Source of the DNA: a virus
DNA: 20,096 nucleotides
Virus genome (UHGV): UHGV-1724231
Reading direction: 5' to 3' (one strand)
Below are positions 2,969 to 18,158 of this stretch, piece after piece. Position 1 is the stretch's first letter; each line of letters starts with the position of its first letter. Below the pieces are notes generated by a model. That model had not been told where the DNA came from. It saw nothing but the letters and a program-made list of their open reading frames with translations, and did not search any database. A program made the translations under genes and the position numbers.

Positions 2969-3376
2969 ATGAAGACTGAAACAAAACATATTAATGGTAA
3001 GAAGGTGACAATTATCCTTCTTGGTGCAAGAGATGGTATCAAAATTTCTATGAAGCTTGGTAAGGTCGTTGTACCCACCTTTGCTCAGATGATTACCAGT
3101 CTTGCTGGTAAAGATGAGAATCCAGAAGCTCCTAAAGTTCCTTTCAAAGAACTGGTAGAAGCTTGCTTTGACAGAATTGATGAGTTAGATATTGACTCAA
3201 TGGCAGAATTACTATTTCAGGGGGCAACTGTTGATGACTTCCCACTGAAAATTGATAGTTACTTCCAAGCAAACTACGGTGAATTTATTGACTTCTTAGC
3301 CTTTGCTTTGGAGGCAAACTTCGGAAGTTTTTTCGAGGCAAGCATTTTCAAAAGCCTAACTTCTCAGGAAGCTTAA
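2969..3376 (+). CDS. Tail assembly chaperone (G-like, upstream frame)
   Basis: 135-aa acidic ORF between tube and tape measure genes; contains in-frame T_TTT_TTC slippery heptamer near its 3' end. Confidence 0.6.
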   Translation: MKTETKHINGKKVTIILLGARDGIKISMKLGKVVVPTFAQMITSLAGKDENPEAPKVPFKELVEACFDRIDELDIDSMAELLFQGATVDDFPLKIDSYFQANYGEFIDFLAFALEANFGSFFEASIFKSLTSQEA

Positions 3377-3612
3377 AGTATGTTATGCAGACCCCGCTGA
3401 CTGACGGGGCTGTAGAATCAACTTATGAAGAAGCAGATGAGATGAAATTTGTGCTTGCCATTTATGGAATGGAAGGGTGTAAAGAAACACTCGACCAACT
3501 TTTCTCAATGACTTTCGTTGACCTATTATCTCTTCGTCAATATCTGGAAATCCAGAAGTCATACAAAGAAGAAATGGCCTATAACGAACTCAGAAAGGCA
3601 GGTAAAATTTAA
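3328..3612 (+). CDS. Tail assembly chaperone -1 frameshift extension (GT-like product; listed ORF 3385..3612)
   Basis: -1 frame is open from the slippery site at 3328-3334 through the 75-aa ORF to TAA at 3610-3612, which overlaps the ATG of the tape measure gene. Confidence 0.5.
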   Translation, partial: FFRGKHFQKPNFSGSLKYVMQTPLTDGAVESTYEEADEMKFVLAIYGMEGCKETLDQLFSMTFVDLLSLRQYLEIQKSYKEEMAYNELRKAGKI

Positions 3613-11353: not shown

Positions 11354-11652
11354 TGTCTCTTTCATGGTCTACAGACACAGTGGATGCTGATGGTAACCAG
11401 CTTAAAGTTTTACCACCTCCAGAAATTCAAGCCACTGGCCTATTAAGGGGTGAGCCTATGGGTCGTCAGTGGTTCAACTATATTATCAACTATTTGCTTA
11501 ATAAAGTAAATGGTACTGTTGGAGAGGTTCGTTCATTTGCTACGGAGCAACCTGATTTAGTTGCCAATGGTTGGGAATTAATTGACACAGTAACAGGGAC
11601 TGCACACACCAGCACTACTAACCTTTACACATATGAATATAAAGGGAGCTAA
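11353..11652 (+). CDS. Hypothetical tail-fibre-associated protein
   Basis: 99-aa ORF, TAATG coupling, immediately upstream of the first fibre gene. Confidence 0.4.
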
Positions 11653-11654
11653 TA

Positions 11655-12353
11655 ATGGCAGTCGGTGAAATTCAAATTAGTGCATTACCTCAAGCCTCAT
11701 TACCTATTGATTTAAGTGATATCTTTCACCTTAAGCAAGGTATTGAGGATAGGCGATGCACACTTGAGCAATTACTTGCTCCACACGCATCTTTGAGAAA
11801 TAACCCACACGGTGTTACAAAGGTTCACGTAGACCTTGGGAATGTTGTTAACGCACTCCAATTGGTGGCTGCTAATAACTTGTCAGATGTGGTCAGTGTT
11901 GAAGAGGCTAGACAGAATCTTAATATTCTATCAAGTGATGAAGTCAATACTCTTATCCAGAACCACATTAATGACAAGAATAATCCTCACAACACCAACA
12001 AGATTCAAGTAGGTTTGTCTAATATCCAAAACTGGACATATTCAAACTCTTATTCTGAAGATGCTGATAAGTATGCTACTGCAAAAGCTGTGAATGCTTT
12101 ATATAGAGCTATTCAGGATAGCTATCCAATTGGTACTATTCATTTATCAGTTAACCCTGCGAACCCAACTACATATTTACTTTGTGGTGGTACTTGGGAG
12201 TTAGTTTCTAAAGGAAGGTCTCTTGTTGGTTATGACACAGATACAAGACCTGTAGAATCAGTATTTGGTTCTGCTACTGCAACACTTACACAAAATAACA
12301 TTCCAAGTCACACACACTCTGTGTTGCTGGGCACTCTCATAATGCAACAGTAG
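11655..12353 (+). CDS. Tail fibre protein, N-terminal and shaft part (frame interrupted near 12320)
   Basis: AAAGGGAG RBS; two copies of the NNPH-x-TK-x-V-LxN fibre repeat motif; ends IPSHTHS… then TAG, while homology continues in the -1 frame. Confidence 0.6.
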   Translation: MAVGEIQISALPQASLPIDLSDIFHLKQGIEDRRCTLEQLLAPHASLRNNPHGVTKVHVDLGNVVNALQLVAANNLSDVVSVEEARQNLNILSSDEVNTLIQNHINDKNNPHNTNKIQVGLSNIQNWTYSNSYSEDADKYATAKAVNALYRAIQDSYPIGTIHLSVNPANPTTYLLCGGTWELVSKGRSLVGYDTDTRPVESVFGSATATLTQNNIPSHTHSVLLGTLIMQQ

Positions 12354-12820
12354 TAATTTCTAGCTTTGACTATGGGATTAAGAACACATCAAGTTTTGAT
12401 TATGATTCTAAGGCCACAAATGACTCTGGAAGCCACGCTCATAACGTTAATGGTTCTGTAAGCAGTGCTGGTAGTCACAGCCACAGGATTCCATTGAGGG
12501 GTTCTGACAGGGGTGGTGTGAATGCTATCACAGCATCGGCTGATGCAGGTATTGGTAATGCGTCATATACAGACTTTGATGGGGTTCATACACATACATT
12601 CAACGTTAACTCTTCAGTTGGTGGTAACCACTCCCACAGTGTGTATATTGGAGCACATGGACACAGTGTTGTAATTGGTTCGCATGGACACTCTGGTACT
12701 GTGACAGTTCAATCTTCTGAACACACTCACTCAGGCACAACTGGTGCATTTGGTGCTGGACAAGCATTTAATATTGAGCAACCTTCTTATGTTGTATATG
12801 TTTGGAAGAGAACTGCGTAA
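12299..12820 (+). CDS. Tail fibre His-rich C-terminal tip domain (frame 2; ORF track lists 12494..12820 from a TTG start)
   Basis: Frame open from 12299; encodes repeated HxH motifs (GHSHN, SHAHN, SHSHR, HTHT, HSHS, HGHS, HGHS, HTHS) and a C-terminus resembling that of the 791-aa fibre (…VWKRTA vs …AWVRTA). Confidence 0.55.
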   Translation, partial: HSKSHTLCVAGHSHNATVVISSFDYGIKNTSSFDYDSKATNDSGSHAHNVNGSVSSAGSHSHRIPLRGSDRGGVNAITASADAGIGNASYTDFDGVHTHTFNVNSSVGGNHSHSVYIGAHGHSVVIGSHGHSGTVTVQSSEHTHSGTTGAFGAGQAFNIEQPSYVVYVWKRTA

Positions 12821-12865: not shown

Positions 12866-15241
12866 ATGGCTGAATATAAGCTAAGTGAGCTAAACAGTAT
12901 TGACACAGTTCGCTCAGAAGATTTACTTCACCTAAGAGTTATCAAAAGGTCTGATATGCTTGGTGATGAAGACCGTAAAATGACCTATGCAAATTTCCTT
13001 GCCTCTTTCAAACTAGAAAGATTCTTACAACTAACTGGTGGAGATATGGTAGGGAATCTTGGCATCGTTAAATTAAGATACGGTGGAAAAGACTTATTAG
13101 ACCCAACAGGTTCTTCTGAGGTTATTCTTGGTGATACTGCCAAAACCTTTAGAATTAATGCGAGTGCTTTAAGATTAACTGTAAACGATGCCACAAGGTC
13201 TGCAACAGTTTATCACACACTTAATAAACCATCTCCTAATGAATTAGGTATGAGAACTAATACTGAAAATGATACAAGATATGCTATGAAGGAAACTGAA
13301 AATACTTTCTTGGCAAGACAAATCATTAATATCAACGGTGTTGGTCTAACACTTAAAAGCATCTTACCAGATGGTGGAGCATATATTGAAGCAAGGGATT
13401 CAAATAATGCTTTAAGATTCACAGTTGGTAACTTGACTTCTAGTACTGATGTTACATTAGTTAATAGTAAGGGTGCTACGTTGACTCTTGGCACAAACTC
13501 TGTTAGTGTTGATAAGAATTTTGAAATCAATGGTCAGGTTCAGCCTAATAACTGGAATAACCTTGATGCAAGATTCTTTACACAGACTGCTGCTGACCAG
13601 AGATTTGCAAAACTTAATGCAAGTAATAACTTTATTGGGGTTAACAACTTCAATGGTAAGACTTATGTTATTGCAGATAGTAATGCACTTAACTTAAGAG
13701 CGGTTACAGAGAATGCTGCATTATTTATGCGTGGTTATAACAGTGCTGGGACAGGAACTTGGTATGTAGGTCAGCCAGATGGTACACAGTCTGAGATTGT
13801 TTTAGCAAACCAGATGACAAATGTTAACTTGAAAATTGCTACAGAGTTTTCATTTAACAAAGCTATCAATGTAGCTGGTCAGGTAAAACCAAGTGACTTT
13901 TCTAACTTTGATACAAGATATGTTCCAAGCTCTTTGACGAACGTTCTTGCAAGAACTAATGCTGCAAACGTTTTTACTAGTCCACAGACTATCAATACTG
14001 ACAGCGACAATCCTTTTAGACTACAGGCAACAGCACAAGACTCTGGAATCTACATGTCTGCACATAATGCTAATGGGAGCAGGAGATGGTGGTTGGGTAT
14101 TGGTGATGCTGGTCAAAACAATGTGGTACTTAACAATGATGTAACAGGAAAGGCAATCAATATTGGTACTGATTTAGATGTGAATACACATGTGAATATT
14201 GTTGGACAAGTAAGACCAAGCGATTGGTCAAACTTTGACTCAAGATACTACACACAATCTGCTTCAAACTCAAGATATATGTTGTCTGGTGTATCTGGAA
14301 CGGGAACAGAAGTTGGTGATACAACAGGTATTGCTTGGAATTCAAAAACAGGTTTGTACAGTGTTACAAATTCAACTGGTGGGTCTACTCACTTAGTTTA
14401 CCAAATGTACCTTGGAGTTGGTGCATCTACACCGACTGCACAGTTTAAATTTAACTACAAGAATACTGGAATCTATTATAGAACAGCAAGGGATGGATTT
14501 GGTTTTGAAGAGGTTTGGGCTAAAATCTACACAGACCAAGACAAACCTACACCCTCTGAACTTGGTGCTTACACCAAGGCTGAAGTAGACCAACGTATTG
14601 CTTCCGCTGTAACTGATGCTACAGACCTTAAGAAAGTGTATCCAGTTGGTATTGTGACGTTCTTTGCTTCTAATGTCAACCCAAATACAGCTTTCCCAGG
14701 CACTACTTGGACTTACTTAACTGAGGGTGCAAACAGAACTATTAGGATTGGTTCTGAAAATGGCTCTGATGTGAAAGGTCTTGGTGGTGCTGATACGGTT
14801 GCATTAAGTGTTGGTCACATCCCTGCACACACTCACGGCTTCTCTGGGACAACTTCTTGGTTTGACTATGGAACTAAGTACACAGATGGTCAGGGTGCTC
14901 ACGACCATGACAGAGGTAATATGGAAATCTCTGGTAACTTTGGATGGTTTAGAAGTGATAATAACTCGTTCTACGTTGCAGACGGTGCTTTTGCAATGAG
15001 TGGTAGCCAAGGTGGGCATAGCTGGACAGGTTCTAACTTCACTTATGGTGCGCCAGTTAACTTCTATGCTTCCAGAACTTGGACAGGTAGAACAAGTTGG
15101 GTAGGTGCTCATGCCCACGGTGTAGGTATTGGTGGACACAACCACACATTCAGTGGTGACACTGGTGCGACTGGTTCTGGTGCAGCATTCAGTGTTCTTA
15201 ACACTTACATTAAACTAATGGCTTGGGTAAGAACTGCATAA
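12866..15241 (+). CDS. Tail fibre protein (large, receptor-binding candidate)
   Basis: 791-aa ORF with AAGAGGA RBS; about four tandem ~110-aa repeat modules; His-rich C-terminal tip (HIPAHTHG, AHDHD, AHAHG, GHNHT). Confidence 0.7.
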   Translation: MAEYKLSELNSIDTVRSEDLLHLRVIKRSDMLGDEDRKMTYANFLASFKLERFLQLTGGDMVGNLGIVKLRYGGKDLLDPTGSSEVILGDTAKTFRINASALRLTVNDATRSATVYHTLNKPSPNELGMRTNTENDTRYAMKETENTFLARQIININGVGLTLKSILPDGGAYIEARDSNNALRFTVGNLTSSTDVTLVNSKGATLTLGTNSVSVDKNFEINGQVQPNNWNNLDARFFTQTAADQRFAKLNASNNFIGVNNFNGKTYVIADSNALNLRAVTENAALFMRGYNSAGTGTWYVGQPDGTQSEIVLANQMTNVNLKIATEFSFNKAINVAGQVKPSDFSNFDTRYVPSSLTNVLARTNAANVFTSPQTINTDSDNPFRLQATAQDSGIYMSAHNANGSRRWWLGIGDAGQNNVVLNNDVTGKAINIGTDLDVNTHVNIVGQVRPSDWSNFDSRYYTQSASNSRYMLSGVSGTGTEVGDTTGIAWNSKTGLYSVTNSTGGSTHLVYQMYLGVGASTPTAQFKFNYKNTGIYYRTARDGFGFEEVWAKIYTDQDKPTPSELGAYTKAEVDQRIASAVTDATDLKKVYPVGIVTFFASNVNPNTAFPGTTWTYLTEGANRTIRIGSENGSDVKGLGGADTVALSVGHIPAHTHGFSGTTSWFDYGTKYTDGQGAHDHDRGNMEISGNFGWFRSDNNSFYVADGAFAMSGSQGGHSWTGSNFTYGAPVNFYASRTWTGRTSWVGAHAHGVGIGGHNHTFSGDTGATGSGAAFSVLNTYIKLMAWVRTA

Positions 15242-15932: not shown

Positions 15933-16832
15933 CTACTTACCTACTGACAATGGAGCTTCAATCTTACCAGCATGTCGGTAATCTTTCAAGCCACCTATAA
16001 AGTCACTTGCTGTTAAGTGCTTCAGGTCACCAATACTGTTTAACTCAATATCAATATCAAACTTCGGTGCTGGGAACTCTTCGTTACCTAACAACTGATA
16101 GACTTGCTGCATATGGTTCAGGTAAATCTGGGTATCACCAAAAGTACCAACCAGATAACGTGGAGTTAAACCTGTCATCTTACAAAGCACATGTAGGATA
16201 AACCCATAAGATGCAATATTAAAGGGCAAACCTAAAAATGTGTCGCATGAACGCTGATACCATTTCAAGTCAACCTCTCCAGTATTCGAGATATAAATCT
16301 GGAAAAGTACATGACAAGGGGCTAATGCCATAGAGTTGCTTGAGATATCTGCTGCATTCCATGCGTTAACCAGCATGTAACGGTCTGTAGGAGACTTTTT
16401 CATCTTATCCACAAGATTACTCAACTGGTCAACGACAACCCCACCATGCCCCTCAAAAGCCCTCCATTGGACACCATAGATTCGTCCACCTGCATCTTCC
16501 AACCAATCATTTTCAGTTGCATAGGTTGTCTTTAACCAACGTTCAAAATCATCTGTCCAGATAGTCCAACGCTCTCCATCGTTCTCTCCCCAAGTTCTGT
16601 AACGTAAATCACCCAACTTGTTTTCACCATTCAAAAACCACAATGCTTCACCTAAAACTTGACGCATGAAGGTTTGCTTTGAAGTGATTAATGGGAAACC
16701 ACTACGCATGTCAAAACGAAACTCTGGAGGTGCAAACGTTGTAACAACCTTTCCAGTTCTTGTTTTACGTTCTTCCCCAACAGAAAGAACATGGTTGAGA
16801 ATCCCTTTGTAACTTATATCTGCTTGTGACAT
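15933..16832 (-). CDS. thyA: Thymidylate synthase (ThyA family)
   Basis: 299-aa ORF with ThyA hallmark motifs: RTG…GFPL(I/V)T(S/T)K, ALAPCH (catalytic Cys), YQRSCD-FLGLPFNIASY (Asn in FNIAS indicates dUMP specificity); AGAGGA RBS. Confidence 0.85.
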   Translation of the reverse strand: MSQADISYKGILNHVLSVGEERKTRTGKVVTTFAPPEFRFDMRSGFPLITSKQTFMRQVLGEALWFLNGENKLGDLRYRTWGENDGERWTIWTDDFERWLKTTYATENDWLEDAGGRIYGVQWRAFEGHGGVVVDQLSNLVDKMKKSPTDRYMLVNAWNAADISSNSMALAPCHVLFQIYISNTGEVDLKWYQRSCDTFLGLPFNIASYGFILHVLCKMTGLTPRYLVGTFGDTQIYLNHMQQVYQLLGNEEFPAPKFDIDIELNSIGDLKHLTASDFIGGLKDYRHAGKIEAPLSVGK

Positions 16833-17699: not shown

Positions 17700-18158
17700 T
17701 CACACTAGGAAATCTTCAAAGTGTTTTGGTATAAAACTTAGGAAATCCATAGAACCCAAATCACCTACTAAGCGAATGTAATAATCGTTCTCGCAAGTTG
17801 CATTAACTACATGTCGGCCTATGTATGGCTTCACAACCTCTCTGATATCATCTATGAAGATGTTCAGAAGAGTTTTGAAGGATTTAGGGTACTGAGTTCC
17901 TCCATACAAGTCAATGCTTGCTTCAGTCTTTACAGAGATTGATTTAGCATCTCTGAACTCAGTTGCGAACAGATGAGCAGGAAGAATACAAAGTGAGTCC
18001 CCAGTATCTTCATCAACCAACTCAATAGTTCCTGCATCATAGTTTGTTTTAATCAGTATTTCACCTTCTTGTGACTTTTTGGTTTCAAGGTGAGTGGTGA
18101 TAATACCTCTCAACATTGATGCTTCTGGGAGCAGTAAGTTGATTCCAATCTTTTGCAT
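17700..18158 (-). CDS. Hypothetical protein
   Basis: 152-aa ORF, coupled to the upstream gene (1-nt gap); no recognisable motif. Confidence 0.5.
   Translation of the reverse strand: MQKIGINLLLPEASMLRGIITTHLETKKSQEGEILIKTNYDAGTIELVDEDTGDSLCILPAHLFATEFRDAKSISVKTEASIDLYGGTQYPKSFKTLLNIFIDDIREVVKPYIGRHVVNATCENDYYIRLVGDLGSMDFLSFIPKHFEDFLV

Follow-up and report, generated by a model that had tools for sequence, protein, structure and literature searches.

The window, by which we mean the whole 20,096-nt stretch of virus genome UHGV-1724231 that was analysed, shares 99.0% identity over 19.9 kb with Shigella phage ESh22, a member of Mooglevirus (Ounavirinae, Felix O1-like). Its positions 11655-12820 hold a single gene, which encodes the shorter of the long tail fibres of Mooglevirus (391 aa) and is the homologue of Sf14 gp52, and translation revealed that in the window this gene is spread over two reading frames. 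The frame that begins with the ATG at 11655 comprises 224 native codons ending in ...NNIPSHTHSVLL, followed by GTLIMQQ and an early stop at 12351-12353, and the corresponding ORF (11655-12353) encodes 232 aa. Before its stop this frame reads ...NNIPSHTHSVLLGTLIMQQ, and a second stop follows directly, at 12354. The -1 frame stays open between 12299 and a stop at 12818-12820, overlapping the first at 12299-12353. It contains the sequence ...VAGHSHNATVVISSFDYG... (with ...AGHSHNATVVISSFDYG...), is rich in HxH motifs and includes a 108-aa ORF (12494-12820) with a TTG start.

The stop of frame 0 and the opening of the -1 frame at 12299 had both been proposed in the original prediction, and translation confirmed them. 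The same holds for the observation that the downstream fibre retains this region without interruption, since the 791-aa protein reads IPAHTHGFSGT..TSWFDYG at the equivalent place. The joined product had been estimated at roughly 390 aa; the homologues are 391 aa long, and the window's own two parts, when joined, would give 388 aa and one stray base. A scan under a strict rule detected no terminator after the fibre gene. The features of the locus, together with two further positions of the window that bear on its origin, are the following.

11454..11458, plus strand: GCCTA in place of a 10-N gap of the ENA scaffold; the window equals its relatives here
11655..12327, plus strand: 5' part of the shorter long-tail-fibre gene (Sf14 gp52 homologue), codons 1-224 in the native frame
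12309..12317, plus strand: CACACACAC run, His-Thr-His codons; the same in ESh22 and Sf13, with the frame change located elsewhere
12327..12328, plus strand: deletion junction; 10 bp TAACTGGTGG absent with respect to all relatives, 1-nt (T) microhomology
12328..12353, plus strand: out-of-frame tail of the truncated product, GTLIMQQ and stop codon, from translation
12329..12820, plus strand: remaining 3' portion of the gene, shifted to the -1 frame, with the HxH-rich needle-like region
17706..17706, minus strand: second private frameshifting deletion, 8 bp, truncating the minus-strand ORF 17700-18158

Identity and domain architecture of the fibre gene

A single ORF of 1176 nt (391 aa; 1209 nt in Moogle) occupies the same position in ESh22, ESh21, Sf13, Moogle and Felixounavirus HY02, where it is annotated as tail fibre or tail protein. 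The gene order, with baseplate or baseplate-wedge genes followed by a 99-aa ORF, the fibre and a longer fibre of ~791 aa, is common to ESh22, Sf13, Moogle and HY02. Both parts of the window's gene match the tail fibre family PHROG 2097 (E = 9e-87 for the 5' part and E = 2e-36 for the 3' part), and the window's fibre falls in the same 90% protein cluster as the gp52 orthologues. These orthologues of Sf14 gp52 include ESh22 URY12846.1, Sf13 YP_009612734.1 and Moogle gp57, all of them uninterrupted, whereas the ORF of the window is broken by a private 10-bp deletion. In all relatives examined the homologues are single 391-aa ORFs and not two separate ones, and the proposal that one gene had been broken in two was therefore correct. 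Several PHROG tail-protein families also match the segment 11655-12040.

Cryo-EM has assigned the product of this gene in Sf14, gp52 (391 aa), to the shorter of the two long-tail-fibre sets, with a length of ~430 Å (Subramanian et al. 2025, PMC11821841). It presents a cysteine-containing baseplate-binding motif, E-D-R-K-C-T, and a domain resembling the C-terminus of gp10, and the Mooglevirus fibre has been described to carry its receptor-binding-like domain mid-fibre instead of at the tip (PMC11821841). The two fibre sets may bind different receptors (PMC11821841). The family, structure and role of this gene are thus already described (PMC11821841), and nothing of substance is new here in those respects.

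The motif EDR(R/K)CT located near the N terminus of Sf14 gp52 is found at the same place in the window, as EDRRCT. Besides this N-terminal baseplate-attachment region, the 5' part encompasses NPH..(V/T)K.QVGL repeats together with the first half of a gp10_C/collar-like domain, and it ends at the first HxH motif. Two copies of N-N-P-H-x-(V/T)-x-K-(V/I)-(H/Q)-V-x-L-(G/S)-N-(V/I) were observed at residues 49-64 and 109-124, in the N-terminal third of the fibre. The remainder of the gp10_C/collar-like domain, its second half, is encoded by the 3' part (12329..12820), as is the HxH-rich needle-like region. The match to Pfam Gp10_C (PF21939) is accordingly split, with profile positions 5-78 corresponding to residues 156-222 of the 232-aa ORF and positions 61-139 falling in the -1 frame, and its halves sit on either side of the HxH-rich insert. 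The division of this match between frames indicates that the break severs a single domain architecture, immediately behind the first HxH motif.

The intact ESh22 protein aligns to the receptor-binding tip of T4 gp37 (PDB 2XGF; E = 1e-22) over residues 147-363, HxH repeats included, and to the C-terminal domain of T4 gp10 (PDB 2FKK; E = 3e-7). The chain of the gp37 tip, in the work of Bartual et al. from 2010, reportedly follows an out-and-back topology, and a Gp10_C match split around an HxH insert fits such an arrangement. Compared with T4 gp37, the window-type fibre protein is considerably shorter, and a gp38-type or head domain was not identified in it.

Ten missing bases and the intact gene of the relatives

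Alignment with ESh22, Sf13, HY02 and Moogle established that the window lacks the 10 bases TAACTGGTGG between positions 12327 and 12328 (equivalently 12328/12329). In the base-by-base comparison, in which ESh21 was also included, ESh22 reads GTGTTGC-TAACTGGTGG-TGGGCAC and the window GTGTTGC-TGGGCAC; the junction in the window is GTTGCTGGGCAC, and the intact sequence at this point is ...GTTGCTAACTGGTGGTGGGCAC... The absent bases encode part of the L-T-G-G segment. The break had originally been placed at about 12320-12326, slightly upstream of the position given by the alignment. The 10-mer is not a repeat unit and its flanking microhomology is limited to 1 nt (T), so that the deletion bears no slippage signature.

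The short CACACACAC run at 12309-12317 was also pointed out in the original prediction and is indeed present, encoding His-Thr-His through the codons CAC-ACA-CAC, but it is not the site of the frame change. It lies 10 nt upstream of the deletion, is identical in ESh22 and Sf13 and is conserved in HY02. The frame change therefore does not stem from gain or loss of a simple repeat, the CA run being identical in the intact ESh22 and Sf13 genes, and slippage at this run was ruled out as its cause.

Over the 19.9 kb shared with ESh22, the deletion is one of two internal indels. The closest relative, Logan contig L012, is 99.87% identical to the window over 15.8 kb, with 11 substitutions and the 10-bp gap as the sole indel, and base-by-base comparison with L012, L013 and L015 found the window to be short by the same 10 bases. 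A 161-nt query spanning the junction was searched against a phage collection, in which 76 of the 78 matching records cover at least 80% of it; among the matches listed, the matched span of every phage record exceeds the query by exactly 10 bases. A pattern search allowing 0-10 inserted bases at the junction, performed on IMG/VR and on JGI metagenomes, returned two contigs, each with the full 10 bases: one from IMG/VR, which shares 99.5% identity with the window, and one from a metagenome, which shares 99.2%. The exact 30-mer of the deletion junction was not found in IMG/VR.

Protein-level searches yielded a concordant picture. In the protein collection the 232-aa product occurs on one contig only, a public ENA scaffold, and among the other listed members of its 31-member 90% protein cluster all are 391 aa long. 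Three Logan contigs with an identical tape-measure protein all carry the 391-aa gene, and once the 10 bases are restored the encoded protein is an exact match to that of 8 other contigs. The split is therefore not conserved, and an intact single ORF was present in every relative checked. The 108-aa product was also detected on one Logan contig from another run, but this contig begins downstream of the junction, inside the gene, and is hence uninformative on the deletion.

The coding state of both parts bears on the age of the break. The 5' part differs from ESh22 at just two positions, both synonymous, and the six codon differences with respect to L008 and L009, of which four lie downstream of the break, are likewise all synonymous. 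No damage has thus accumulated downstream, indicating that the break is either extremely recent or not biological. The substitutions separating the window from L012 (5 synonymous and 6 non-synonymous) are too few for a test of purifying selection.

Two contigs present irregularities of their own in this gene. An ENA metagenome contig of 17,149 bp encodes a 321-aa version of the fibre (protein P0017) from an internal GTG start at residue 71, which implies a disruption or gap at the 5' end of the fibre gene in a second metagenome assembly too; this version is intact across the LLTGGGHSH segment. A short Logan contig (L011, SRR5621390_323) matches the window only from position 12368 onwards, its positions 1-22 being unrelated sequence; the break in this contig, which comes from an unrelated sample, hence lies some 40 nt past the site of the deletion.

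Gaps in the public scaffold

The 232-aa product is encoded on scaffold NIEL14-1_SAMEA1966253_METAG-scaffold_654 (23,564 bp) of ENA assembly ERZ28622977. The window corresponds to scaffold positions 3451-23564, starting right after a 74-N gap and, by length arithmetic, ending at the scaffold end, and the public scaffold presents two further gaps, of 10 N and 12 N, within the span of the window. Low coverage would be in line with a fragment of 23.5 kb that represents a ~88-kb genome and is interrupted by three gaps.

At the 10-N gap the window has GCCTA (11454-11458), in agreement with all close relatives. The presence of these bases where the ENA copy has 10 N indicates that the window stems from another version of this assembly, with its gaps closed differently, and their correctness that gap closing made use of real read information and was not uniformly unreliable. 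A strain mixture behind this gap was argued against by the near invariance of the relatives there.

At the 12-N gap the window fuses both flanks with a 1-nt T overlap, which amounts to an 8-bp deletion at 17706 with respect to ESh22. This deletion frameshifts the minus-strand ORF 17700-18158 (PHROG 4422), which encodes 152 aa as against 173 aa, and it is absent from 34 of 34 matching phage records, all of which are 8 bases longer. On each side of this gap, the flank corresponds exactly to the longest sequence common to an intact and a deleted allele. The two internal indels of the window are therefore alike: both are 8-10 bp long, private, out of frame in conserved ORFs and joined through a 1-nt T overlap, and one of the two, that at 17706, lies exactly on a documented scaffold gap. 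At 12328 the ENA copy carries the same 10-bp deletion as the window and no N run, which indicates that at least one assembly stage took this junction as continuous.

Origin of the frame break

The original prediction had put forward a recent inactivating indel, an assembly error and regulated or stochastic frameshifting as possible origins of the break. The first two retain nearly all the probability, and the third is unsupported, given the single-ORF homologues and the lack of a slippery heptamer. Programmed -1 ribosomal frameshifting, or phase-variable slippage at the CA repeat, regulating a receptor-binding protein would account for the overlap of the two frames at 12299-12353 and for the (CA)n run nearby, both of them weak points in its favour, and is highly improbable here. 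Scanning of the whole upstream ORF (11655-12353) in the zero frame found no X_XXY_YYZ heptamer, and the same scan detected T_TTT_TTC at 3328-3334 in the tail assembly chaperone gene, indicating that it can see a real site where one is present. The predicted RNA fold of 12300-12420 is no better than that of shuffled sequences (-20.8 kcal/mol versus a shuffle mean of -22.0; z = +0.39), arguing against a stimulatory structure. Like the lambda G/GT-type chaperone frameshift, the fibre gene presents two overlapping frames in a tail-morphogenesis gene, but it lacks a slippery site, a stimulatory structure and a conserved split. The two-frame arrangement is replaced by a single ORF in all the relatives, the CA run is identical in the intact ESh22 and Sf13, the lesion being a non-repeat 10-mer located 10 nt downstream of it, and even a perfect -1 shift would yield a protein devoid of the L-T-G-G of the conserved SVLLTGGGHSH. 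A literature search for fibre frameshifts in Felix O1-like phages found nothing relevant. An arrangement of two independent genes, encoding a 232-aa fibre base and a 108-aa tip protein translated from the TTG at 12494, can be dismissed with similar confidence. A gene caller did call the 108-aa ORF on the ENA scaffold, and an AGGA lies 5 nt upstream of this TTG, but the same TTG and AGGA are found inside the single ORF of all the relatives. The start-codon scan identified no ATG in the -1 frame, with TTG 12494 as the first possible start, and an independent start for the tip ORF was rejected, given that only TTG and GTG codons, inside the coding sequence of all relatives, are available. In addition, the 108-aa piece would lack part of the needle and one half of the collar domain, and the only other 108-aa record is the Logan contig that begins inside the gene.

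The loss of the 10 bp is probably the result of a mis-join in a low-coverage, gapped short-read assembly. This explanation is favoured because the deletion is private, both of its flanks are still coding, the scaffold is gapped and a sister 8-bp deletion falls on the 12-N gap. An assembler or gap closer would have joined two weakly supported contig ends and dropped TAACTGGTGG. Without these 10 bp the last 40% of the gene, at its 3' end, falls into the -1 frame; no ribosomal frameshifting would be involved, and the real phage most probably makes a normal 391-aa fibre. Small indel errors at closed or collapsed gaps are a known type of error in short-read scaffolds, and the window likewise presents private 8-10-bp deletions and N gaps; the junction at 12328 differs from such errors in having no N run in either version, its classification among them being by analogy. 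That the ENA copy shows the same deletion and no N run at this point speaks against a mis-join, as do the correct filling of the 10-N gap with GCCTA, the 1-nt overlap, which is expected by chance about one time in four, and the flanks of the 12-N gap, which would also fit a real mixed population. A genuine and very recent inactivating deletion in the sampled phage population, leaving a 232-aa stub, is a less probable explanation, although one that deserves serious consideration. The phage would then rely on the longer, 791-aa fibre, with its shorter fibre set missing or defective, and losing one of two fibre sets that may bind different receptors (PMC11821841) could be tolerable. The occurrence of the same junction, with no N run, in both assembly versions is in line with a genuine deletion, as is the correct gap filling of the window at the 10-N gap, and an indel bubble of two alleles would match the sequences flanking the 12-N gap and imply real deletion variants in the sample. 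Conversely, the deletion is unique among all the relatives and public contigs searched and the downstream part shows no decay, and both internal indels are out of frame in conserved ORFs, which is unexpected for a replicating population. Microhomology of only 1 nt, with no slippage signature, and the gapped state of the scaffold also weigh against it.

Should the stub be real, it would keep the baseplate-binding end, but both the HxH needle and the returning C-terminal half of its collar-like domain would be lost. Based on the split Gp10_C match, the alignment to 2XGF and the topology reported for gp37, it would very probably fail to assemble into a functional trimeric fibre. We regard it as unlikely that the deletion is both real and dominant in a natural gut phage population, with a Mooglevirus replicating in vivo without a gp52-type fibre and with a 232-aa baseplate-bound stub. 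In that event, the shorter fibre would be dispensable or counter-selected on the host present, and the 8-bp deletion at 17706 would represent a second polymorphic lesion in the same population. A real deletion would constitute a natural knockout of one Mooglevirus fibre set, providing a modest hint on which fibre is dispensable and no new mechanism.

The case also calls for caution, in that a frame break in a receptor-binding gene beside a dinucleotide run can mimic phase variation or recoding. Here, near-identical genomes revealed a private 10-bp loss in a gapped metagenome scaffold, and thereby explained a suggestive recoding candidate. Elsewhere in the window, the canonical T_TTT_TTC heptamer at 3328-3334 lies near the 3' end of ORF 2969-3376 (Pfam Phage_TAC_15), with the -1 frame open into a 75-aa ORF (3385-3612), and a G/GT-type programmed frameshift of the tail chaperone is expected at this site. 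The substitutions with respect to ESh22 are strongly clustered, with 34 (14000-14500) and 28 (16000-16500) per 500 nt, compared to 0-5 per 500 nt elsewhere in the first 13 kb. The thymidylate synthase gene contains one of these clusters, and the distal region of the gene for the 791-aa long fibre contains the other, a distribution that suggests mosaic recombination patches.
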